Below the pieces are notes generated by a model. The model was not told where the DNA came from. It did no database searches and was given only the letters and a program-made list of their open reading frames with translations. From Candidatus Doudnabacteria bacterium (lineage in GTDB: Bacteria > Patescibacteriota > Doudnabacteria > UBA920 > O2-02-FULL-48-8), in the NCBI GenBank assembly GCA_016186915.1, contig JACPKU010000004.1, forward strand, positions 3,168 through 67,167: a stretch of 64,000 bases of DNA. Direction: 5' to 3'. Positions 3,811 through 58,299 of this stretch are shown here, in pieces (position 1 is the stretch's first letter; every line of letters begins with the position of its first letter). Both the position numbers and the translations under genes were made by a program.

Positions 3811-3873
3811 TTAATAATTTCTAGTGAGCAAAGCTACTACAAACTACTCACTACTAACTACCAACTAATTTAT

Positions 3874-4245
3874 ATGGCTAGACAACAAGAACAACCAGAA
3901 ACAATCGTGGCGAGCGGGATGCGGATCGAGGGAGAACTGAAAAGCAACGGCAACATCCGGATTGACGGCGTGGTTGCCGGTAAAATTCAAACGGCGCACG
4001 ACATTATGGTCGGAGGAACAGCCCAGATTGACGCGGACATTAATGCGGAAAACGCCGTGGTTGCCGGGGTGGTTGCCGGCAACATCACGGTGAAGGGTTC
4101 AATTTTGATTATGGAAACAGGCAAGGTTGCCGGCAACATTAGCTGTGCTAATCTAGGCATCAGAGAAGGCGCTATCTTTTCTGGAAATTGCAAGATGAGC
4201 GAACAAAAACAAGTCGATCTTCAAAGTGAAGAAGAACAAGAGTAA
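3874..4245 (+). CDS. Bactofilin (polymer-forming cytoskeletal protein, CcmA-like)
   Basis: Beta-helical repeat pattern: IRIDGVVAGKIQ..IMVGGTAQIDADINAENAVVAGVVAGNITVKGSILIMETGKVAGNI. Confidence 0.7.
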   Translation: MARQQEQPETIVASGMRIEGELKSNGNIRIDGVVAGKIQTAHDIMVGGTAQIDADINAENAVVAGVVAGNITVKGSILIMETGKVAGNISCANLGIREGAIFSGNCKMSEQKQVDLQSEEEQE

Positions 4246-11902: not shown

Positions 11903-12550
11903 TTGCTAAAATATCTATATATGACAATTTCTTGGTTTGGGTTGTCCAGTTTTAAAATTACTGGCAAGGACATCACTATTATTACCGATCCGTTTGGAAG
12001 CAAATCCGGATTGACCCCAGTAAGAGGGGCGGCTGACGTAATCGTCTCTACTAATCCTGAACATCCTTGGTGCAACAGCTTTTCTTCCGTTTCGTCAACT
12101 CCTTTTATAATCTCGGGTCCTGGAGAGTTTGATATCAAAGGGGCTTTTATTATCGGTGCTCCGGCAGAAAATAAAGAGTTGGGTGCTTCCACTATTTATG
12201 CCATAGAAATTGAAGACGTTAGACTGGCTTTTATTGGCCCCATCCAACAAACTCAACTAACTGAACCCCAGCAACAAATTATGGAAGGCGCGGATATAGT
12301 TTTGGTGCCCGTGGGCAACAAGCAGGTTTTAGATTATGAGTCAGCGGCCAGGATCGCCACCCAATTAGAACCGTTTATCGTCATCCCTCACAGTTTCAAA
12401 ATCCCCAAACTCGATGCTGATCTCGACAAGATTGATAAATTTTTAAAAGAGATGGGTAGCAAATCAGAAGAAATGGAAAAACTAACAATTAAGAAAAAGG
12501 ACCTGTCCGGCGAAGGATCAAGATTAGTGATTCTTACTCCGATGCGCTAA
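11903..12550 (+). CDS. MBL-fold metal-dependent hydrolase (UPF0173-like)
   Basis: MTISWFGLSSFKITG..ITDPF N-terminus typical of the family. Confidence 0.45.
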   Translation: MLKYLYMTISWFGLSSFKITGKDITIITDPFGSKSGLTPVRGAADVIVSTNPEHPWCNSFSSVSSTPFIISGPGEFDIKGAFIIGAPAENKELGASTIYAIEIEDVRLAFIGPIQQTQLTEPQQQIMEGADIVLVPVGNKQVLDYESAARIATQLEPFIVIPHSFKIPKLDADLDKIDKFLKEMGSKSEEMEKLTIKKKDLSGEGSRLVILTPMR

Positions 12551-12555
12551 ATTAA

Positions 12556-13140
12556 ATGAGCCTTAATAGTTTTATCCGCAACCTGCAAAACAAACCATAC
12601 GGAGCAAGAATCCGGATTCTTTGGACGACCACAATTATTATTGGTATCGTTCTCGTTGCTGTCTGGCTTGCCACGCTAAAAAACAATATTTCAAATTTGG
12701 GAGGAGAAAATATTCTGGGGGACAACCCTCTTCCCGACAACAATTTTCTGGCGGATCAAGGGAATCAAGCCCAAAACAATTATATAACCGCGGAGCGGAC
12801 AGGGTTAACACCAGCTGGCGCTTCAGAAATATTTTTTAAGGTCAATAACCCCACCCAAGACATCTTAAACTTCTCCCCTCTGGACCAAATAGAATTAAAA
12901 GTTGGTCAAACAATCTTAACCCCGCTTAAACTAACCAACCGGCAAGGACAAACGTTTGTCAAAAAAATCCTCTCCAACACCGAAAACTTTGGCACCCTAA
13001 CCTTTCAACAGATTGAAGCAGACAACGGTACCTTGATTTTTGATAACTTGTTTTTCGAACAAGCACCAACCAACATTTTTAAAGAAACTCTGGAATTGGA
13101 TTTTAAAAACCTAAGCAAGACGCAGGAACTAAGAGACTAG
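12556..13140 (+). CDS. Hypothetical membrane-anchored protein
   Basis: ORF with an N-terminal TM helix, directly upstream of gyrA. Confidence 0.3.
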
Positions 13141-13144
13141 CTTT

Positions 13145-15604
13145 ATGGCCAAAGAAGAACCAACCCCTATAAACAATATTGGTCAAGTCAACCAACGTCC
13201 GATTGAGCAGGAGATGGAGGAGTCGTACTTAGATTACGCCATGAGCGTGATTGTGGCCCGGGCACTGCCTGATGTGCGGGACGGATTGAAACCAGTGCAC
13301 AGACGCATTTTGTATGCCATGTCAGAACTGGGACTTCGAAACAATGCCAAGTTTAGAAAATCCGCGGCTGTGGTTGGGGAAGTGTTGGCCAAGTACCACC
13401 CGCATGGCGATGTCGCGGTATATGATTCTTTGGTGCGCCTAGCACAGACCTTCGCCATGCGCTACCCCCTAATTGACGGCCAAGGAAACTTCGGCTCTAT
13501 GGACGGCGACGCGCCAGCGGCCATGCGTTACACAGAAGCGCGCATGCAAACTCTCGCAGAAGAGATTCTCTCGGATTTGGAAAAAGAAACCGTGAACTGG
13601 ATGGACAACTATGACGCCACCAAAAAAGAGCCGATGGTTTTGCCAGCCAAAGCTCCCAATCTTCTGCTGAATGGAACTTTGGGAATCGCGGTTGGCATGG
13701 CCACTGACATTCCACCCCACAACTTGAAAGAAGTGGTGGACGCGACCACCAAGTTGATTGATGATCCAACTGCCACTACGGAAGATCTTTTGGAATTTAT
13801 CCAAGGACCCGATTTCCCGACTGGGGGAATAATTTACGACTGGAATGCCATCAAACAAATCTATGCCACGGGTCGCGGACCGGTGGTAACCCGAGCAAAA
13901 ACTGAAATTGTGGAAAACAAAGGGCTGCACCAAATTATTATCACGGAAATTCCTTATCGGGTAAACAAGGCTTCCTTGCTGGAACAGTTCGCCGAACTGG
14001 TGAAGAATAAAAAAGTGGAAGGGATTAGGGATTTGCGGGACGAATCAGATAAAGACGGGGTGAGGATTGTCATTGATTTGAAAAAAGAAGGACTGCCGAA
14101 CAAAATTCTAAACCAGCTGTATAAATACAGCAGTCTGCAGGACACTTTCCACGCCAACATGCTGGCCTTGGTGGACGGGATTGAGCCAAAGGTCCTGAAT
14201 TTAAAAAATCTGTTGGAGTATTTTATTGCCCACCGCGTGGAGGTAATCAAGCGGCGCACCGCGTATGATTTAAATAAAGCCAAAGAACGCGCCCATATTT
14301 TGGAAGGCTTGAAAAAAGCCCTGGATCATATTGACGCGGTGATTGACACCATCAAAAAATCCGCAACCACAGAAGAAGCGCACGTGGCGCTGATGAAAAA
14401 GTACAAACTCAGCGAAATGCAGGCCACTGCAATTTTACAAATGCAGCTGCGCGCCCTGGCCGGACTGGAGCGAAAGAAAGTAGACGACGAACTAAAAGAG
14501 AAAAAGAGACTGATTGCCGAATTGGAGGATCTTTTGCAGAGCGAGAAAAAGATAAAAACCGTGATCAAAACCGAACTTAACCGGCTGAAAGAACAATACG
14601 GCGACGAGCGCAGAACCAAACTGGTCAAACAGCCGATTGGTGAATTTAAAGTAGAAGACTTGATTCCTAACGAACAAGTAATTGTAATTATCACCAAATC
14701 TGGATACGTCAAGCGGGTTGCCGGCGACACTTATAAGTCCCAGGGACGCGGGGGCAAGGGCGTGATTGGCATGACCACGAAAGAAGAGGACGTGGTGGAG
14801 TGGCTCAAAACCACCAACACTCACGACGACATACTCTTCTTCACCAACAAAGGTCGGGTATTCCAAACCAAAGTTTACGAACTGCCCGAATCTTCTCGCA
14901 CCGCCCGCGGCCAAGCCTTGGTCAACTTCTTGGATCTGCCCAACGACGAGATGGTCAGCTCGGTGCTGGCCATTGCCAAAAAAGAACCAGCGGCTTATCT
15001 GGTACTATGCACCAAAAAAGGACTGATCAAAAAAACTCCGATTGAAGAATTCGCCAAGGTTAGACGGTCCGGCCTGATTGCCATTAAACTGAAAGTCGGC
15101 GACGAGCTAAGATGGGTCAAATCCTCATCTGGCAAGGATGATGTCATCCTGTCCACATCGGGCGGCCAGGCCATCCGCTTTGATGAAAAAGATGTCCGAG
15201 CCATGGGCCGGACCGCTGCGGGAGTGAAAGGCATGCGGCTCAAAAAAGATGACTGGATTATGAGTATGGATTTGGTAACCAAAAAGGGCGACCTAGACAA
15301 CGTCCAGCTTTTGATTGTTACAGAAAACGGTCTTGGAAAAAAGACAGACCTGAAATTCTATAAGCGCCAAAAACGCGGCGGCTCTGGCATTAAAACGATT
15401 AAACTAAGCGCCAAAACCGGCAACATTGTCTCTCTTCACGTAATAGACAAGTCAGAAGAAAGAGACCTGGTGGTGATTACCAAAGCCGGACAAACACTGC
15501 GCACGCCGGTGGGGAAAATTTCAACTTTGGGCCGCGCCACTCAGGGTGTTAAAATCATGACTTTGGAAGATAAGGACAAGGTGGCAACAACCACGATCAT
15601 ATAA
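13145..15604 (+). CDS. gyrA: DNA gyrase subunit A
   Basis: [28 protein letters not shown], the active-site Tyr region (AAMRYTE), and C-terminal beta-pinwheel repeats. Confidence 0.95.
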
Positions 15605-15642
15605 GCCCCAAATAACAAATTACAAGTTCCAATTAAAATCCA

Positions 15643-15915
15643 ATGTCTCAAATCCCAAACAATAAATACGACTTGGAGGAGAGGACGTTTAAATTTTCTA
15701 AATCTGTAGCAATATTTTGTAATAAACTGCCGAAAACTGCGTCCAACTTTGAGCAGTCAAGACAAGTTATCAGGTCTTCAGGATCCATAGGGGCAAACTA
15801 CATAGAGGCTAACGAATCTTTAGGCGACAAAGACTTTAAGATGAAATTGAAAACTTGTCGCAAAGAAGCTAAAGAATCAGCATACTGGCTTAGATTAATT
15901 ACAGAGCTTAACTAA
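15643..15915 (+). CDS. Four-helix-bundle protein (23S rRNA intervening-sequence protein family)
   Basis: VIRSSGSIGANYIEANES...CRKEAKESAYWL matches the TIGR02436 four-helix-bundle family. It is free-standing here. Confidence 0.6.
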   Translation: MSQIPNNKYDLEERTFKFSKSVAIFCNKLPKTASNFEQSRQVIRSSGSIGANYIEANESLGDKDFKMKLKTCRKEAKESAYWLRLITELN

Positions 15916-16063
15916 GAAATAAAAGAAGAAGCGGGTAAACTTTACAACGAAGCGATAGAGCTTAAAAAAATATTTTCTACTATCATTAATAACACCAAAT
16001 GATTGAAAATTGAAATTTGGTGTTTAATTGTTATTTGGTGCTTGTAATTTGGGATTTCTCCCT

Positions 16064-16729
16064 ATGCTCTACCTAGTCGCCACCCCGATTGGAAACTTGA
16101 AAGACATTACATTGCGCGCGCTGGAAACTTTATCAGCCTGCGATTTCATCATTGCCGAAAACCCAAAGAACAGTTTGAAACTTCTGCAGCATTATCAAAT
16201 CCCGAAAAAACAAATCATCCAGTTTGCCGAACACAATGAGCAAAGAGTACTTCCAACCCTAATCCCTAAACTTAAATCCCAAAACGCCTGCTTAATCACT
16301 GACGCTGGCACCCCGGGCATTTCCGACCCTGGGTTCCGCTTGGTTCGCGCCTGTATTCAAGAAGGTATTGAGGTGGTCAGCGTTCCGGGACCGTCCGCTG
16401 TACTTACTGCGCTCACGACTTCCGGGCTGCCCACGGACAGATTTTTGTTCGTGGGATTTTTACCTAGGACCGAAAACAAAATAGTTAAACTGATAAAACT
16501 CGGCCACGAGACTGCAAGCACCTTGATTGCGTTTGATTCTCCGCACAGAATAATAAAAACCGTTGGGTTTATTAAAAATATCCATCCGGATTGTAAAATA
16601 GTAGTGGCCAGAGAGCTTACCAAGCTCCATGAAGAACTGCTTCAAGGAACCCCAGAAAAAGTTTTAGAAAAACTTAATGCCATGCCAAGTGTTAGAGGCG
16701 AGATCACTCTTCTGGTTTCATTTAAATAA
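16064..16729 (+). CDS. rsmI: 16S rRNA (cytidine1402-2'-O)-methyltransferase RsmI
   Basis: MLYLVATPIGNLKDITLRALETL and the tetrapyrrole-methylase fold pattern. Start chosen at the ATG at 16064. Confidence 0.85.
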   Translation: MLYLVATPIGNLKDITLRALETLSACDFIIAENPKNSLKLLQHYQIPKKQIIQFAEHNEQRVLPTLIPKLKSQNACLITDAGTPGISDPGFRLVRACIQEGIEVVSVPGPSAVLTALTTSGLPTDRFLFVGFLPRTENKIVKLIKLGHETASTLIAFDSPHRIIKTVGFIKNIHPDCKIVVARELTKLHEELLQGTPEKVLEKLNAMPSVRGEITLLVSFK

Positions 16730-16732
16730 TTT

Positions 16733-17452
16733 ATGTCCGGACACTCTAAATGGTCGACAATTAAACGGCAAAAAGGCGTCGCTGACCAAAAGCGGGGACA
16801 GCTCTTCACCAAGCTGGCCCGGGCGATTTCGGTTGCGGTAAAAACCGGCGGCGGAACAGATCCAACCTTTAATTTTAAGCTTCGCATGGCAATTGATAAG
16901 GCGAAGGACAGCGCCATGCCCAATGACAACATTGAACGAGCGATTAAACGCGGCAGTGGCGAAGGCAAAGATAGTATTATTGAGGCTGTGACTTACGAAG
17001 GCTATGGACCTGCTGGCGCCGCACTTTTGGTTGAGACAATCACGGACAATAAAAATCGCACCACAGCCAACATCCGCTCCATTTTCAATAAACACGAAGG
17101 CAAATTGGGCGAACAGGGATCAGTGGGCTGGATGTTTGAAGCGAAAGGAGAAATTCTGGTGGAGAAGCAACCTGGGATCGAAGATCTCTCAATGGAACTG
17201 ATTGATCAGGGTGTGGAAGATGTAAAAATTACAGACGAAGGCTTAGAGATCTATACCTTACCTCTCGATTTGGAAAAGATAAAAAAGTTTATCACTGACA
17301 AGGGACTGAAGATCTTAAGCGCTGAGCCGATTATGCGCCCGGCGCAAAACATAGAAGCTGTGGAGGGGGATGCTAAAAAAATCCAAGGCCTAATTGAAGC
17401 ACTTGAGGATGACGATGACGTGATTAAGGTGCACACCAACGTAAATCTATGA
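16733..17452 (+). CDS. YebC/PmpR family DNA-binding transcriptional regulator
   Basis: MSGHSKWSTIKRQKG N-terminus is diagnostic. Confidence 0.9.
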   Translation: MSGHSKWSTIKRQKGVADQKRGQLFTKLARAISVAVKTGGGTDPTFNFKLRMAIDKAKDSAMPNDNIERAIKRGSGEGKDSIIEAVTYEGYGPAGAALLVETITDNKNRTTANIRSIFNKHEGKLGEQGSVGWMFEAKGEILVEKQPGIEDLSMELIDQGVEDVKITDEGLEIYTLPLDLEKIKKFITDKGLKILSAEPIMRPAQNIEAVEGDAKKIQGLIEALEDDDDVIKVHTNVNL

Positions 17453-34382: not shown

Positions 34383-35977
34383 ATGCTTACTCCAAACGAT
34401 CGGAGTATCAGGATTAAGCAGGTTTATTCCGAGCTTGATAGAAAATTCGAAGAAGAACGGACCCAAAACCAGGCGCAGAATTTGGGGGTATCTTATATTA
34501 GCCTCTACGGGTTTCCGATTGATCACAATGTCTTGGGCATGATTTCCAAAGAAACCGCAGAGGCTACTGGTGTAATCGCGTTTTATAAGGAAGGGCGAAA
34601 CATTAAACTCGGCGCGCTTAACCCGTCGTCGGAGGTTAATAAGGTAGTTGAAGGTTTAAAGGCCAATAGCTTTTATGTCCAGCTTTATCTGATTTCGCAG
34701 AGCAGTTTTGAACACGCCTTAACTTTTTATAACCGGATTGTGAAAGCAGACAGGAAGTCGCAGGACATAAAGATTGAAGACAAGGTTTCGGAAGTAAAAA
34801 TCAATTCTTTAAAAGAGCTGGCAAATAAATTGTATAACGTGTCAGCCACGGAACTGATCCAGCTGGTTTTGGGATCGGCCCTGCCGGTAGACGCGTCTGA
34901 CATTCATCTAGAGCCGGGCGTTTCCAGCATCAAGGTGCGCTTCCGAATTGATGGCGTGTTGCAGGATGTCGCCACCTTGCCGAAAGATGAGTATCATCAA
35001 TTGGTTTCCCGAATTAAAATTTTGTCAAAACTCAAGTTAAATATAGTGACCAGTCCGCAAGACGGCAGTTTTAGTTTGACTTATAACCAGCAACCGGTGG
35101 ACATTCGCGTGTCTGTTTTGCCTTCGGCTTTCGGTGAGTCTTTCGTGCTTCGGATCTTGCGGCAGGACAAACAGGAGCTGAAGTTTGACGACTTGGGCAT
35201 TAGCGGGCTGGCGCAGAAAAATTTATTGGAACAGATGCGCAAACCCAATGGCATGATTTTAACCACCTGTCCCACTGGCAGCGGCAAGACCAGATTATTA
35301 CCTTGGAAGACCCCGTGGAGTATAGGATTCCAGGAGTCACCCAAACCCCGGTTGATAAAAAGGGAGGGTTAAGCTTTGCTCAGGGCTTGCGCGCTATCGT
35401 CAGGCAAGACCCAGACATTGTGATGGTGGGCGAGATGAGGGATCTAGAAACCGCAGAAACCGCAGCGCAAGCAGCGCTGACTGGACACATTGTGCTGTCC
35501 ACCCTGCATACCAATGACGCGGCTAGCGCCATCCCCAGGCTTTTGGATTTGGGGGTGAAGCCGTTTGTTTTGGCTCCCGCTATCAATGCAGTGATTGGTC
35601 AGCGGTTGGTGCGCCGCATTTGTTCGGCGTGCAAGACAGAATACACGCCGGAAAAAAATTTACTGGCCCGGGCCGAGCTGATTTTAAGCGGAATTTCCAA
35701 AACCGCCAAAGTAAAACTGCCGGCCAAACTGATTTTTTACCACAGTACTGGCTGTGAGGCCTGCAAAGGACTGGGCTACAAAGGCCGGGTGGGCGTATAC
35801 GAGGTATTTGTGGTGAATGAAGCAGTGGAAAAATTGATTCATCAGCAAGCCATTACCACGGAAATAAAAAGGCAAGCGGTAACTGATGGCATGGTGACCA
35901 TGGCGCAAGATGGACTGCTGAAAGCCCTGGCCGGAATCACCGATGTTGAAGAAGTGTTCCGGGTGACCGAGGAATAG
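34383..35977 (+). pseudogene. Type II/IV secretion/pilus ATPase (GspE/PilB family), disrupted by a ~40-nt deletion plus frameshift near 35293
   Basis: ORF 34383..35372 carries the T2SSE N-domain and Walker A (CPTGSGKT), then goes out of frame. ORF 35303..35977 continues with [28 protein letters not shown] and the Cys-tetrad. The segment between GSGKT and [10 protein letters not shown] (normally ~15 aa) is missing. Confidence 0.65.
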
Positions 35978-36069
35978 CAAAAGAATACAGAATACAGAAT
36001 ATAGAATTTGGAATTTAGAAAAAAATTAAAAAATCGCGGAACCGGCGTTTTAATATCTAATTTTTCCTG

Positions 36070-37669: not shown

Positions 37670-39178
37670 TTGGTGAGATTGCTTCGGCGCAAGCTGCTCG
37701 CAAAGACAAGAACTATGATTATCAAGAACAAAGAACAAGCAATAATCGCAGGCTATCTTCTCAACCCGGGCCAAAGGCATTACCAAGTCGGCGGTCCGGC
37801 ATCTTGGAAGCACTTATTTAGTAAGCTTAGAGTCAAAAAGCTGCTGAAAATATTCGAAGAGATTGAATTGCCACTGATGCCAGTCTTGGCCAAAATGGAA
37901 AAAAGAGGTATTAAACTTGATCTCAAACAGCTGCGACAGTTGAGCAAAAAATTAACCAGCCGGATAGACAAGCTGACCAAACAAATTTATCGCCAAGCCG
38001 GCAAAAAGTTTAATGTTGCTTCTCCGATTCAACTGCGGGATGTGTTGTTTGAGCACTTGAAGATTCCAACAGAAAACTTGCGCAAAACCGGCAAAACCAA
38101 AGCTTTGTCCACGGCGGCCACAGAACTGGAAAAGTTGCGGGAATTGCACCCGATTATTGATTTGATTTTGGAATATCGAGAACTGACCAAGCTGAAATCC
38201 ACTTATGTCGATGCCTTGCCGGAACTGGTGGGGGCGGACGGCAGATTGCATACCAAATACAGTCAGACGGTGGCGGCCACGGGGAGGCTTTCTTCCTCTG
38301 ATCCCAATTTACAAAACATCCCAATTCGTACCGAGCTTGGCAACCAGGTGCGCAAAGCTTTTGTGGCAGAAAAGGGATTTGTCTTAGCTTCTCTGGATTA
38401 TTCCCAAATTGAACTGCGCATTGCCGCCACCTTATCAGGCGATAAAGAAATGATCAAGATTTTCTCCGCCGGAGGCGGATCCGCCTTTGGCGGAAAAGAC
38501 GGCGATTTTCACGCCTCCACCGCTTCGAGAATTTTTGACACTCCTGAGTCAAAAGTAACACCCAGACAGCGCCGGGACGCCAAGACCATCAATTTCAGTG
38601 TGCTTTACGGCGTGTCGGCTTTTGGCTTATCCTCCCGCTCTGAAATGAGCCAAGCCGAGGCCCGGGATTATATCAACAAATATTATGAGGTGTTTAAAGA
38701 TTTAAAAAAATATATAGACACCACAATCAAACAAGCGCATGAAGATGAATTTGTGACTAATCCTTTGGGACGGATCAGAAATTTTGCCGAGATTAATTCG
38801 CCTGTTTATCCAATCCGAGCTGCGGCAGAGCGCGCGGCGTTTAATATGCCGCTCCAATCTTTGGCCGCTGACATCATGAAAATGGCCATGATTCGTATAG
38901 ATGAATTTTTGCAAAATTCATCTATCTCTGATTTAATCTCCCCCTCGGGGGGAGATGCCGCCAAAGGCGACAGAGAGGGGAAAACTGCTGTAAACGACGA
39001 GTGTCGCTTACTCCTGTCAGTGCATGATGAATTGGTGTTTGAAATTAAAAAAGGCAAAGAAAAACAATACTTGCCGAAAATCAAAAAAATTATGGAAACG
39101 GTTTATCAATTATCAGTGCCAGTAACGGTGGATGTAAAAGTGGGAAAGAACTGGATGGAGATGAAAGAATTGGAATAG
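37670..39178 (+). CDS. polA: DNA polymerase I polymerase domain ORF, in a different frame from the upstream exo ORF
   Basis: Pol A motifs DYSQIELRI (motif A), RRDAKTINFSVLYG (motif B) and HDELVFE (motif C). It starts in the vestigial 3'-5' exo region (IIAGYLLNPG). The frame is open back to 37604 and overlaps the upstream ORF end. Confidence 0.8.
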   Translation: MVRLLRRKLLAKTRTMIIKNKEQAIIAGYLLNPGQRHYQVGGPASWKHLFSKLRVKKLLKIFEEIELPLMPVLAKMEKRGIKLDLKQLRQLSKKLTSRIDKLTKQIYRQAGKKFNVASPIQLRDVLFEHLKIPTENLRKTGKTKALSTAATELEKLRELHPIIDLILEYRELTKLKSTYVDALPELVGADGRLHTKYSQTVAATGRLSSSDPNLQNIPIRTELGNQVRKAFVAEKGFVLASLDYSQIELRIAATLSGDKEMIKIFSAGGGSAFGGKDGDFHASTASRIFDTPESKVTPRQRRDAKTINFSVLYGVSAFGLSSRSEMSQAEARDYINKYYEVFKDLKKYIDTTIKQAHEDEFVTNPLGRIRNFAEINSPVYPIRAAAERAAFNMPLQSLAADIMKMAMIRIDEFLQNSSISDLISPSGGDAAKGDREGKTAVNDECRLLLSVHDELVFEIKKGKEKQYLPKIKKIMETVYQLSVPVTVDVKVGKNWMEMKELE

Positions 39179-39225: not shown

Positions 39226-39482
39226 TTAGAGGCAATTAATTTGCTCAATCTCGATTTATGACGGTTGGCGTTGTTTTTCTTTATTATGCCTTTCTTGGCG
39301 GCCTTGTCATAGGCTGAGAAGACGTTCTCCAAGGCTTTTCTAGCTTCTTCCAACTTTCCAGCAGTTGTTAATTTTTTAAATTGCTTAACAGCTGCTTTGA
39401 CTTTGTTCTGGGTAAGAAGATTGAATTTTCGTCTTTTTAGATTTTGTCTGGCGGCCTTGATGGCGGATTTGGTGGTGGGCAT
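39210..39482 (-). CDS. rpsT: 30S ribosomal protein S20
   Basis: MPTTKSAIKAARQNLKRRKFN is the canonical S20 N-terminus. Confidence 0.85.
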   Translation of the reverse strand: MPTTKSAIKAARQNLKRRKFNLLTQNKVKAAVKQFKKLTTAGKLEEARKALENVFSAYDKAAKKGIIKKNNANRHKSRLSKLIASNKKAA

Positions 39483-39629
39483 ATATTTAGTGAGTAGTTA
39501 GTAGTTTGTAGTGAGTAGAAAACAAGTAAAATAAGATCCAGCTAAGTCTAACAAAAGATAGGTGACAAATCAAGAGGCGGAGGGGGGCTGAAAGTTGATG
39601 GTTCAGCCCCCTAACTTGGCAGTCATGGT

Positions 39630-41788: not shown

Positions 41789-43808
41789 ATCACTTATGTC
41801 TTTTCATCCGTTGTTTGTCGCGGATGCTGGCGATTTGATCGCGAAGGCCGGCGGCTTGTTCAAAGTCCAGATTTCTGGCCGCCAAGTCCATTTGATCCCG
41901 CAATTCTTCGATCAGGTACGCGACTTCCTGCCGGGTCATTTTGTTTAAGTCGATCCGTGATCCGTGATCCGTGATCCGTGACTCCTCTTTCTTACCCGCA
42001 AGACGTGATTCTTTCACTGCTTTTTCTATGCCCTTGGGAGTAATGCCATACTTTTTATTATAGTCTTCCTGAATCTTGCGTCGCCGTTCAACTTCGGCAA
42101 TAGCCCGTTGCATAGAACCCGTGATTTTGTCTGCATACATAATCACATGGCCTTCGATGTGGCGGGCTGCCCGGCCCATGGTTTGAATGAGTGAAGTGTC
42201 GGAGCGCAGGAACCCTTCTTTGTCAGCATCCAGGATCGCCACCAGCGACACTTCTGGCAGATCCAGACCTTCGCGCAGAAGATTGATGCCCACCACCACG
42301 TCATAAATGCCTAATCTTAGATCGCGCAGAATCTCTAAGCGTTCCAAGGTGTCCACGTCAGAGTGCAGGTAATGCACCTTGATGTTGTATTCAGTCAAAT
42401 ACTGCGCCAGTTCCTCTGCCGTGTTTTTGGTTAAGGTGGTGACCAGCACGCGTTGTTTTCCGCCGGCAGGCAGGTTCACTCTTTTCTGGATTTCTTCCAT
42501 CAAATCATCCACTTGGTTTTTCGTTGGTCTGACTTCTATCTTGGGATCCAAAAGCCCGGTCGGGCGGATAAGTTGCTGCGCCACTTGTTTGGAAATTTTT
42601 AACTCCCGGTCTTTTACCGGGGTGGCCGACACAAATATGGTTTGGCTAATTCGTTTTTCAAACTCTTCAAATTTTAAAGGCCGATTGTCAGCGGCAGAAG
42701 GCAGGCGAAACCCATAATCAATCAAAGTTTGTTTGCGGGACTTGTCTCCCAAATACATGCTCCCAATTTGCGGCAGGGTCATGTGCGATTCGTCTATAAA
42801 TAACAGAAACTCATCTGGAAAATAATCCAAAAGCGTGGAAGGCGGCTCACCGGGAGAGCGAAAATCCATGTGCCGCGAGTAGTTTTCAATGCCGTTGACA
42901 TAACCGGTTTCCAGCATCATCTCAATGTCAAAGTTCGTGCGCTGTTCAATGCGCTGGGCTTCGATCGCCCTGTCTTTACTTTTGAAAAATTTGACTTGTT
43001 TTTTTAGCTCGTCGCGGATGTTGTCTACGGCCTTAAACAATTTTTCTTTGGTGGTGACAAAGTGTTTGGCCGGGAAGACGGTCAGATGTTGAATCGAACC
43101 TAGATCGCTGCCGGTGAGAGGATCGTGAATGGATATTTTTTCGATTTCATCCCCGAAGAAGTTGACTCGATAGATTTTGTCCTCGGAAGCCGGGATCAGT
43201 TCAACAGTGTCGCCGCGGACGCGGAAATTGCCCCGCTCAAGATTGACATCGTTGCGGATGAATTGCAGGTCAGTGAGTTTGCGCAAGAGCTTGTCTCGTT
43301 TGCTGCTTGCCCCAACTTTTAGAGGGACAGACAGGTCCAGATAATCACCCGGACTGCCCAAGCCGTAAATGCAGGAGACCGAAGCCACGATTAAGACATC
43401 CGAGCGAGACAGCAGGCTTTGCGTGGCCGCGTTTCTTAACTTGTCAATTTCTTCATTAATTTCCGTTTCCTTTTCGATGTAGGTATCGGAGCGCGGAATA
43501 TAGGCCTCGGGCTGGTAGTAATCATAGTAGGAGACGAAGTAGTGCACGGCGTTGTCCGGGAAGAAATCCTGAAATTCGCTGGCTAATTGGGCAGCTAAGG
43601 TTTTGTTATGCGAAATGACCAGAGTCGGCTTATTAATTTTTTCCACCACATTGGCCATAGTAAAAGTCTTCCCACTACCCGTCACGCCCAAAAGCGTCTG
43701 GTAGCGGAATTTTTTATGCAACCCTGAAACCAATTTTTCTATGGCCTGCGACTGGTCGCCAGCCGGTTTGAAATTTGAACGCAGCTTGAAATGCATAGCA
43801 ACCTTCAT
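41789..43808 (-). CDS. uvrB: Excinuclease ABC subunit B
   Basis: [12 protein letters not shown] Walker A, helicase motifs, and a C-terminal UVR domain ([13 protein letters not shown]). Confidence 0.95.
41952..41979. repeat. Tandem heptamer (GATCCGT)x4 in frame inside uvrB
   Basis: gatccgtgatccgtgatccgtgatccgt. On the minus strand it encodes TDHGSRI. Confidence 0.8.
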
Positions 43809-54322: not shown

Positions 54323-56968
<2,646 letters not shown>

Positions 56969-57189: not shown

Positions 57190-58299
57190 TCAGGCAAGAG
57201 CAAGGTTCGGGTCAGCGACGAATGTCTTAGTGGGTAGTTTGCTCCGACGCTTCGGTCGGAGTCTCGACCTGACAATTTCAGCGTCGGGATAGTGGGTAGT
57301 GAGTAGTTTGTAATGAGCAGCAAGACCAATCATTGCGGCATTGTCTGTGCAGTATTTAAGCGGGGGGATACTGACTGAGAGCTGATAGCTCTTAGCTAAT
57401 AGCTTATAGCGAGCACGCAGGAGGTCGTTGGCTGCAACACCACCGCCGAGCATAATAGTTTTGGGTTGGTATTTTTTAATCGCTTGTTCTGTTTTGGCAA
57501 TCAGGACATCCACGATGGCTTGCTGGACGGAGGCGGCTAAGTTAGCTTTTAGCTTCCCTCTCTGTCCATTCCCGCGAAAGCGGGAATCTAATTTTTGGAC
57601 CTCATATAAAACAGCGGTTTTGAGTCCGGAAAAACTGAAATTTAAATCATCAGAATTAATCATCGGACGAGGAAACTTAAAAGCATGAGGATTGCCGTTT
57701 TTTGCAAGCTTGCTTAAATGCGGCCCACCAGGATATGGTAGTCCCAACAGTCTTGCGGTTTTATCAAATGCCTCGCCTGCAGCATCATCTACGGTTTCGC
57801 CAATGATTTTGTATTGCCCGTGTCCTCGCATCAGTACTAACATAGTATGCCCGCCGGAGACAATCAAGATAATCGCGGGAAATTTGACCCTTCGACTACG
57901 CTCAGGGATCAAACTTTTATGTTGCCTGAGCTTGTCGAAGGCAACGTTGGCATAGATGTGCGCCTCGAGATGATTAATCGGTAAAACCGGTTTGTTCAAG
58001 GTTAAGCCTAAAGTTTTGGCAGTGTCTACGCCCACCATAAGAGACGTCATCAGCCCTGGCCCTTTTGTTACTGCGATATAGTCAATTTCCGCAAGTTTGG
58101 TTTTGGCTTTCTTGAGGGCCAGGTTAATGGTTGGGATGATAGAAAGGACGTGTTCTCTGGCTGCCACTTCCGGCACTACCCCGCCGTATTTCAGGTGGGT
58201 CTTGGCCTGCGAGGCCAAGATATTGGATTTGATTTGGCCGTTAACGATTATGGCTGCGCCAGTTTCATCACAACTGGTTTCAAGGGCGAGTATTGTCAT
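57190..58299 (-). CDS. tsaD: tRNA N6-adenosine threonylcarbamoyltransferase TsaD (Kae1/Gcp)
   Basis: MTILALETSCDETGAAI, the His-His metal motif region, and SGGVAAN. It carries an internal repeat-derived insertion and a C-terminal extension. Confidence 0.9.
   Translation of the reverse strand: MTILALETSCDETGAAIIVNGQIKSNILASQAKTHLKYGGVVPEVAAREHVLSIIPTINLALKKAKTKLAEIDYIAVTKGPGLMTSLMVGVDTAKTLGLTLNKPVLPINHLEAHIYANVAFDKLRQHKSLIPERSRRVKFPAIILIVSGGHTMLVLMRGHGQYKIIGETVDDAAGEAFDKTARLLGLPYPGGPHLSKLAKNGNPHAFKFPRPMINSDDLNFSFSGLKTAVLYEVQKLDSRFRGNGQRGKLKANLAASVQQAIVDVLIAKTEQAIKKYQPKTIMLGGGVAANDLLRARYKLLAKSYQLSVSIPPLKYCTDNAAMIGLAAHYKLLTTHYPDAEIVRSRLRPKRRSKLPTKTFVADPNLALA
57901..57942. repeat. ~42-bp hairpin repeat, copy II (in frame inside tsaD)
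   Basis: ctcagggatcaaacttttatgttgcctgagcttgtcgaaggc. The minus strand encodes FDKLRQHKSLIPER. Confidence 0.7.

Follow-up and report, generated by a model that had tools for sequence, protein, structure and literature searches.

Why should the same seven-nucleotide repeat, in about four tandem copies and in frame, lie within two unrelated housekeeping genes of a single bacterium? We address this question for a DNA stretch of 64,000 nucleotides from Candidatus Doudnabacteria bacterium (assembly GCA_016186915.1, contig JACPKU010000004.1, positions 3,168 to 67,167), hereafter the window. The two genes are uvrB, which encodes the excinuclease ABC subunit B, and valS, which encodes valyl-tRNA synthetase (ValRS). 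We propose that both arrays probably belong to a dispersed family of ACGGATC/GATCCGT heptanucleotide repeats whose genic copies persist at permissive sites, and that ACGGATC would add a unit not described before to the heptanucleotide repeats, a class that is known but little understood. The host genes, both of them intact open reading frames (ORFs), and their arrays, with scores from Tandem Repeats Finder (TRF), are as follows.

41790-43808, minus strand: uvrB, excinuclease ABC subunit B, intact ORF, host of array 1
41952-41981, within the minus-strand gene uvrB: array 1, perfect, period 7, 4.3 copies, 100% match (TRF)
54323-56968, minus strand: valS, valyl-tRNA synthetase, intact ORF, host of array 2
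55814-55841, within the minus-strand gene valS: array 2, perfect over 28 nt, period 7, 4.0 copies, 100% match (TRF)

Two heptamer arrays and their host genes

On the plus strand, array 1 consists of four GATCCGT units, preceded by tc and followed by GA and then ctcc, which corresponds to TC(ACGGATC)4 on the coding strand. Array 2 is prolonged to position 55844 by three more nucleotides with one mismatch (GATCTGT), so that the plus strand at 55814-55844 reads CGT, three GATCCGT units, GATC and tgt. Both host genes lie on the minus strand; the sense unit is therefore ACGGATC. The arrays are about 14 kb apart and share 25 identical nucleotides, which are the heptamer run alone, as their flanks are unrelated. 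The earlier note on this DNA had reported identical in-frame tracts in uvrB and valS, and this was confirmed by TRF, by the ORFs and by shuffled sequences.

Neither array is a product of chance. When one mismatch at most was allowed, a 14-mer made of two units matched six times, always inside the arrays, against 0.00 matches expected from 100 dinucleotide-preserving shuffles. Searching the 64-kb window with a 21-mer of GATCCGT units (up to three mismatches) returned only the two loci, as did a scan of the window for decayed copies in any rotation and on both strands (at least 16/21 or at least 20/28 positions), and no other perfect heptamer arrays with three or more copies are present in it. 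The lone heptamer GATCCGT is unremarkable, with 10 copies against about five expected and seven of the ten located inside the arrays. The window has a G+C content of 45% and carries little non-coding DNA. Period 7 accounts for nine of its 24 TRF rows, an Rfam scan of it returned only tRNAs, and its composition profile displayed nothing relevant.

Much of what the two genes have in common follows from the repeat unit itself. Since 7 and 3 share no factor, a shift of one base is equivalent to a shift of one unit, and each of the three frames of the ACGGATC strand is translated into the same cyclic peptide, ITDHGSR. The GATCCGT strand has a TGA in each of its three frames; therefore, the orientation of an array inside a gene is forced. 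As both peptide and orientation derive from the unit, their sameness in uvrB and valS provides no extra evidence, and the shared peptide is not an added coincidence. The same reasoning on stop codons and orientation was applied to TAACTGA repeats by MacGregor (PMC4679880). A protein search with (ITDHGSR)6, which cannot detect short in-frame arrays, returned just 19 weak matches, all of them hypothetical ORFs of 50-75 residues that probably overlie non-coding arrays.

The uvrB ORF is 100% identical to a Candidatus Doudnabacteria UvrB, matches the UvrB structures of the PDB (E = 4e-268) and displays the complete set of UvrB Pfam domains. Array 1 encodes residues 610-619, in the interdomain linker between PF12344 (residues 557-598) and the UVR domain (residues 632-664). 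An alignment of 120 orthologues (overall identity 70-85%) indicates that the linker may take almost any sequence, mostly an E/K-rich one, and that its length varies by only a few residues (one orthologue has an 8-residue insertion); the linker of the window protein is of the modal length. The codon alignment with P0002, the closest orthologue, and with a second orthologue, P0014, is gapless, with 8-10 codons replaced and none added. Array 1 is thus an equal-length replacement, colinear with the orthologues codon for codon, and not the insertion that it had been taken for. Its outer codons, TCA...ATC, match TCT...ATC in P0002, and the comparison suggests that the new material may be only the inner 24 nt. 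The closest other UvrB proteins among 5.8 billion proteins are about 83-85% identical (P0002, 85%). The gene is not normally essential and is dispensable in model bacteria, so that the description of both hosts as essential genes does not hold for uvrB.

The same linker of P0014, from another Doudnabacteria genome (GCA_016199215.1), carries a decayed array. This protein has PITDDGLQI at the codons where the window has RITDHGSRI, encoded by CCGATC followed by ACTGATG, ACGGATT and ACAGATA, and each unit is one or two positions away from ACGGATC. In the same register, 23/33 bases are identical to array 1, a likeness with a calculated chance of about 1e-8 per comparison, negligible even across 120 orthologues. 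The decay proceeded through point substitutions and the frame was kept. Neighbour joining, which resolves the UvrB tree poorly at 83-85% identity, does not group the two array-bearing proteins as sisters. With the linker set aside, the window protein is nearest to P0002, while P0014 is nearest to P0008, P0009 and P0023, and none of these carries an array. A single recent common origin of array 1 and the P0014 relic is not supported by these sequence comparisons. Either the uvrB linker gained an array on two occasions, or the array is old, has become unrecognisable in most lineages and was kept homogeneous in that of the window.

In the stretch of GCA_016199215.1 that encodes P0014 (L121), a diversity-generating retroelement (DGR) is located 3.5 kb from uvrB, at 15512-16921, with its reverse transcriptase split into two ORFs and with a bAvd gene. 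The gene that it probably targets (LTD/beta-helix, 11993-15364) and the 3' end of uvrB overlap. A DGR was considered as the cause of the replaced linker and set aside, as none lies near uvrB in the window and the variable region to be expected does not include the linker.

The valS ORF is 100% identical to a Doudnabacteria ValRS from the same contig as the UvrB record and matches Thermus thermophilus ValRS (1GAX) at E = 5e-169; the closest other ValRS sequences among the 5.8 billion proteins are 65-77% identical. Array 2 encodes (Q)ITDHGSRIT, at residues ~376-386, which follow the conserved QWFVDVN strand and precede the TLKELM helix. The earlier claim of about 10 extra residues proved right: T. 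thermophilus ValRS has a 10-residue gap exactly under the array peptide, and the orthologue P0123 is 10 codons shorter, reading GTC ACA ACA CTC where the window reads GTG AAT GAA CAG, the array, and ACG CTG. Compared in this way, ValRS has 10 extra codons relative to both P0123 and 1GAX, whereas UvrB displays no change in length. Among 120 orthologues from the Candidate Phyla Radiation (CPR; Patescibacteria), to which the source bacterium belongs, the length of this loop ranges from 0 residues (P0123, P0133 and P0212) to several tens. In an AlphaFold2 model of the window ValRS (alignment of 44 sequences; mean predicted local distance difference test score, pLDDT, of 89), residues 377-384 are predicted to form a small beta-hairpin before the helix, with a pLDDT of ~90.

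The same protein displays two other additions. The first is a second in-frame insertion (54695-54763, minus strand, ValRS residues 736-758), encoded by a pair of neighbouring hairpins, both perfect and GC-rich, with the sequences TCCCCCCTTA-ata-TAAGGGGGGA and CCCCCTCTTA-ttt-TAAGAGGGGG, at 54699-54721 and 54738-54760; its peptide is SPLILRGDKTAATPPLKIRGGRGEL. It falls on gaps in T. thermophilus ValRS, is the only internal segment with a pLDDT below 50 in the model, and looks like a palindromic repeat element tolerated in frame. The second is a beta-rich module of ~130 residues (~437-570 of 881, approximately 55256-55660), confidently modelled, that begins after the WYC motif and reaches the CPACG zinc-knuckle motif. 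Many CPR ValRS of 700-760 residues are devoid of this module, and their best local alignments cover only ~50% of the query; 1GAX aligns in two blocks, skipping query residues 448-569.

The repeat in other genomes and its described relatives

We searched for exact (GATCCGT)3 in one genome per species (596 Gb) and found at least 120 stretches, against a calculated chance expectation of ~0.3 for one random 21-mer; all counts that follow refer to the matches listed. The earlier note's worry, that the arrays might be absent elsewhere and the peptide shared by orthologues that have no repeat, is not borne out, as arrays are present in these stretches and nearly all orthologues are free of the peptide. 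Carriers are spread across Chloroflexota, Actinomycetota, Pseudomonadota, Desulfobacterota, Verrucomicrobiota, Planctomycetota, Gemmatimonadota, Acidobacteriota, Bacteroidota, Chlamydiota, Omnitrophota, Bipolaricaulota and Cyanobacteriota, and also include another Patescibacteria genome and an ANME-1 archaeon. Cultured isolates are among them, for example many of Streptomyces (including a complete chromosome) and Kitasatospora, as well as Luteolibacter, Brachybacterium and Paraburkholderia. Several genomes have three to eight separate array-bearing stretches each, and Oscillochloris bin-794, Thermoleophilaceae MFD05442.bin.2.8 and Chlamydiota CSMAG_474 are rich in these arrays.

Decayed units such as ACGAATC and ACGCATC flank many of these arrays. 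The listed stretches (815 kb) also hold 53 other perfect arrays of period 7, with ACCGATC and ACGCATC, each one mismatch away from ACGGATC, among their units; the periods 5, 6 and 8-11 have 0-8 arrays apiece. The carriers share a general heptamer-repeat habit. Array lengths display no preference for multiples of three (46, 42 and 39 arrays in the three residue classes), and most genic arrays have about four units, as in the window. When 135 arrays were compared, no shared flanking element was found beyond further heptamers or homologous genes, and there was no fixed phase at which arrays start or end. The idea of a longer unit of ~30 nt, raised in the earlier note, fails on this comparison and on the unrelated flanks of the two window arrays. 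A mobile element akin to miniature inverted-repeat transposable elements or Rickettsia palindromic elements (RPEs) was also considered and rejected, as the 135 arrays display no conserved flank, terminal phase or element sequence beyond the repeat.

Thirty of 131 arrays in the listed stretches lie deep within long open frames. Pfam domains around the array confirmed 10 of the 131 (~8%) as genic, at nine loci, and the remainder were not positively annotated. The other long-frame candidates are spurious frames, or arrays just upstream or downstream of a gene. The confirmed loci, all identified by Pfam, are the following.

HypF, in a Burkholderiales genome and in a Gemmatimonadota genome: array at the same interdomain site in both
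PheT, Bipolaricaulota: in-frame array
CysRS, Prolixibacteraceae genome: array between the catalytic and DALR domains
UvrA-like double fusion: two arrays
Pseudouridine-synthase (RluA)/methyltransferase fusion: in-frame array
Hydantoinase: in-frame array
Amidohydrolase, ANME-1: in-frame array
6-phosphogluconate dehydrogenase (6PGDH), another Patescibacteria genome: in-frame array

These arrays are located in linkers or form insertions within domains. Confirmed genic arrays that are few and lie in tolerant sites are what one would expect of arrays that land at any position and are purged by selection where they do harm. The proposal that selection acts on the insertions can be kept in this sense of survivorship only, given the single stop-free orientation and the small fraction confirmed as genic.

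The two HypF genes (2775-5153 in L007, from the Burkholderiales metagenome-assembled genome, MAG, and 968-3862 in L045, from the Gemmatimonadota MAG) have flanks with 79-86% identical DNA. This degree of identity points to horizontal transfer, or to mis-binning, more than to two separate insertion events.

Viral contigs also carry such repeats. Three-unit arrays of GATCCGT were present in 13 stretches, six of which belong to one phage lineage, and three composition-matched scrambles of the heptamer were only mildly rarer, in 3, 5 and 1 stretches. For comparison, GGGAATC occurred in 3 and TAACTGA in 107.

Among the long simple sequence repeats (SSRs) of most prokaryotic genomes, those with 7-nt units were reported to be the most abundant, and slippage has been proposed to favour 7 nt as the stretch of DNA held by the polymerase (Mrazek 2007, as cited in PMC4679880 and PMC4692102). 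The ACGGATC arrays resemble this class, as it is portrayed in these citing papers, in their head-to-tail 7-nt units, in their few copies per array and in the excess of period 7, which for ACGGATC is seen in the array-bearing stretches; the class is also marked by many arrays per genome. The study of Mrazek, Guo and Shah (2007), in the same second-hand account, is a statistical description of the class, in which units that are not multiples of three are mainly non-coding, whereas both copies of the window are genic. Individual families have been described, among them the STRR repeats of Calothrix and Nostoc, the GGGAATC repeats of Xanthomonas, with 186 arrays that mostly have four units, and the GGGGAYT repeats of Nostoc (PMC4692102, PMC4679880). 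Tandem ACGGATC/GATCCGT, even as two copies, appeared in no paper of the literature searched.

A parallel in distribution is TAACTGA, found in marine Beggiatoaceae, some Cyanobacteria and Bacteroidetes, for which horizontal spread is suspected and "no mechanism is evident" (MacGregor 2015, PMC4679880). As with ACGGATC, one favoured heptamer in arrays of 2-6 units is patchily distributed across distant phyla, and one strand has stops in all frames while the other encodes a cyclic heptapeptide (LSVISYQ; ITDHGSR for ACGGATC). Unlike the intragenic window copies, the great majority of TAACTGA arrays lie between genes, where they directly precede start codons, and they have been proposed to act in translation. 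The Xanthomonas GGGAATC and the Nostoc/Calothrix GGGGAYT/STRR families (Rehm 2015, PMC4692102) share with ACGGATC a genome-specific amplification and a modal size of about four units. They also form inverted pairs of arrays, which ACGGATC does in two of the listed stretches (L004 and L032). They differ in being G-rich, able to form G-quadruplexes and intergenic, whereas ACGGATC has no G-tracts.

Contingency loci of Haemophilus and Neisseria resemble the window arrays in having, inside a reading frame, a unit that is not a multiple of three (PMC2651432). Their tracts of 13-38 heptamers vary between strains and sit in surface-protein, adhesin, iron-uptake or restriction-modification genes or promoters (PMC2651432). 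The window arrays have four units and are hosted by housekeeping genes.

Ogata and colleagues are said to have described, in 2000, RPEs as conserved elements of 100-150 bp found in frame in protein genes. Like the ACGGATC arrays under our reading, these short selfish repeats would survive inside conserved proteins by keeping the frame and landing in tolerant surface segments. In contrast to these palindromes, ACGGATC arrays are tandem heptamers with neither a conserved flank nor a palindrome; the GC-rich hairpins of the window valS are closer in kind to RPEs than the arrays are. The tandem repeats of Borgs typically originate locally, are unique to each locus and, within ORFs, have units that are multiples of three, whereas ACGGATC recurs at unrelated loci and in unrelated organisms. 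Borg repeats resemble the window arrays as perfect and recent repeats inside ORFs that add peptide segments; they create disordered protein regions and belong to giant archaeal extrachromosomal elements, not to a bacterial chromosome (PMC9879509).

Other repeats of the window

A second family of heptamers, NNNACTA, is present at 3836-3867 (plus strand) and at 39488-39518 (read on the minus strand), with units such as CAAACTA, CTCACTA, CTAACTA and CCAACTA. The two copies agree in sense orientation, each runs into AAT(T/A)TATATG, and they lie directly upstream of start codons (ATG at 3874, plus strand, and at 39482, minus strand). From this arrangement they may be an element of the 5' untranslated region, and they are nearer to the TAACTGA repeats of Beggiatoaceae, which also precede start codons, than the ACGGATC arrays are. 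Another heptamer array is intergenic, at 35982-36020, just past the end of the ORF 35303-35977, with the units AGAATAC, AGAATAC, AGAATAT, AGAATTT and GGAATTT.

The gene tsaD (57190-58299, minus strand) holds a decayed array at 57375-57410 (minus strand), with the units GCTATAA, GCTATTA, GCTAAGA, GCTATCA and GCTCTCA (TRF, 5.1 copies, 79% match). It encodes YKLLAKSYQLSVSI, and the segment is presumably of the same length in E. coli TsaD. Part of the peptide, SYQLSVSI, resembles the LSVISYQ of reverse-oriented TAACTGA (PMC4679880), a likeness that may be due to chance. TsaD also displays an extra segment, FDKLRQHKSLIPERSRRVK, which overlaps an imperfect inverted repeat with arms GCTCAGGGATCA (57900-57911) and TGTTGCCTGAGC (57920-57931), and its Pfam match spans 303 residues for 262 profile positions. 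This segment may stem from a further short palindromic element inserted in frame. Another perfect GC-rich hairpin, ATCTCCCCC-tcg-GGGGGAGAT, is located at 38936-38956, inside a 502-aa ORF (37670-39178, plus strand).

Origin and persistence of the arrays

Based on these findings, we consider it likely that array 1 and array 2 are two copies of a dispersed repeat family that have survived in permissive gene sites. Arrays of this family, typically of about four units, would arise at many places in a genome. A copy that falls within a gene would persist only with ACGGATC on the sense strand, only if the net change keeps the frame and only in a segment whose sequence does not matter. Both window arrays combine all three features, as each has the readable orientation, keeps the frame and lies in a flexible linker (UvrB) or a length-variable loop (ValRS). 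The encoded ITDHGSR is best read as a by-product and not as the object of selection. With so little non-coding DNA at hand, tolerant protein loops might make up much of the neutral space of this region.

As to how the arrays came about, we favour a scenario in which short cassettes arrive already formed, as copies of another array made, for instance, by microhomology-mediated template switching. We prefer this because the same unit is found at two loci 14 kb apart and because stepwise growth in valS would pass through lethal frameshifts. Polymerase slippage would then keep the arrays homogeneous, and selection on linker length would account for the equal-length replacement in uvrB.

Several points weigh against this account. 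Dispersal in the source genome rests on two copies, in the 64 kb that were read, and there are neither degenerate nor intergenic ACGGATC copies within these 64 kb. The uvrB and valS genes differ from those of relatives at about a third (~35%) of their nucleotides, and over such a divergence a neutral 30-nt tract would not stay perfect; the window arrays should therefore be young, or else be kept homogeneous by an active process. A simple insertion model does not predict that the uvrB linker, in two non-sister lineages, would be replaced at equal length; one has to assume in addition that linker length is under stabilising selection or that the patch was templated, and this is the point that the account explains least well. 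The 596-Gb scan was made with GATCCGT only, without a control heptamer, and the viral counts, which indicate that any heptamer can form arrays, do not mark ACGGATC as exceptional. Finally, the mechanism by which arrays are seeded is entirely inferred.

The first alternative is that each array grew in place by slippage from a chance seed, with no transfer between loci, the sameness of the unit being due to a mutational or compositional preference for this heptamer. This is compatible with the published proposal that slippage favours 7-nt units, with array boundaries that have no fixed phase or flanking signature, and with the fact that array 1 fills exactly the ancestral length, as expected of an array formed in place. 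However, there are ~1170 classes of heptamers, and in the absence of a strong bias the same unit would be met twice within 14 kb roughly once in 1000 cases. Growth in steps of 7 nt would moreover take valS through frameshifted and presumably lethal intermediates, and both arrays have about four units, like most genic arrays elsewhere. Hence, we consider an independent origin at each locus unlikely.

Alternatively, the arrays could be functional nucleic-acid elements maintained by selection. One variant of this idea considers the four GATC sites, spaced by 7 bp, as targets for methylation or protein binding. Another variant considers a ribosome-related RNA element, as one rotation of the unit, GGAUCAC, is identical to what we take to be the part of the 16S rRNA 3' tail that immediately precedes the anti-Shine-Dalgarno sequence, a part with which the complementary strand would pair. 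By a post hoc estimate, a heptamer would match the ~13-nt 16S tail in some rotation with a chance of ~0.6%. Selection would explain why the arrays are perfect although the surrounding genes diverged, and the recurrence of the heptamer in very distant phyla could be attributed to their nearly universal 16S 3' end; many arrays elsewhere also lie just upstream of genes. Nevertheless, the mRNA of the genic arrays carries the strand identical to rRNA and not the complementary one, and GATC is not enriched in the window (279 observed, 246 expected). Orthologues do without the element, and the P0014 relic is decaying. A test of array orientation against downstream ORFs (31 versus 12, favouring GATCCGT-sense) was rejected, as the TGA and GTG of that strand create spurious ORFs by themselves; being biased by its method, it gives no support to a functional role. 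Taken together, these points make selection for such an element quite unlikely.

The earlier note had also pointed to slipped-strand contingency, in which slippage by one unit would switch uvrB, valS or both off and on. A 7-nt unit does shift the frame when one copy is gained or lost, and heptanucleotide SSRs mediate phase variation in Haemophilus influenzae (PMC2651432). In uvrB, array 1 lies just upstream of the UVR domain, so that a frameshift would remove that domain only. Together with the dispensability of uvrB in model bacteria, this would allow a transient, repair-deficient and mutator-like subpopulation with a UvrB devoid of its UVR domain; such a switch in uvrB alone is conceivable but without support. 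The arrays of about four units are far from the 13-38 of the Haemophilus heptanucleotide switches (PMC2651432), and their hosts are not surface, uptake or restriction-modification genes. In valS, a shift of the frame at residue ~380 would cost the only ValRS seen more than half of its length, with the anticodon-binding domain, and would presumably be lethal. Elsewhere, the array appears to be mostly non-coding or occurs in unrelated enzymes of other phyla, and the array of the relative decayed by point substitutions with its frame kept. Contingency is accordingly a very unlikely function for these tracts. An artefact of assembly or sequencing is hardly credible, since both genes are full length, colinear with their orthologues and in frame on both sides of the array, which is also present in cultured isolates (including the complete Streptomyces chromosome) and, as a decayed orthologous copy, in an independent assembly, even though the source is a MAG and tandem repeats are often located at contig ends in other assemblies.

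Returning to the dispersed repeat family, a bolder version of it would regard the arrays not as passive products of slippage but as the footprint of an active, sequence-specific copy-and-paste process that writes cassettes of about four units in many bacterial phyla and in at least one archaeon. Patches would be synthesized on a template, through template switching or by an enzyme similar to a reverse transcriptase or primase, and the cassette would sometimes take the place of resident DNA of the same length, for which the uvrB linkers of the two non-sister lineages would be examples. We regard this version as improbable. If it were true, the ACGGATC heptamer would be the marker of a widespread and so far unrecognised DNA transaction.

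Under the dispersed-family reading that we favour, these findings have implications for the way in which proteins acquire new segments. Arrays can be written into conserved proteins such as aminoacyl-tRNA synthetases, Uvr proteins and HypF, and are tolerated where a loop accepts seven to ten arbitrary residues, which would make short repeats a source of novelty in loops and linkers. For annotation, the peptide ITDHGSR provides a simple flag for the ACGGATC repeat. Neither the period of 7 nt nor the presence of one heptamer in unrelated phyla is understood, and the clean junctions of the genic copies, together with the decayed orthologous copy, could help to work out how such arrays are seeded.

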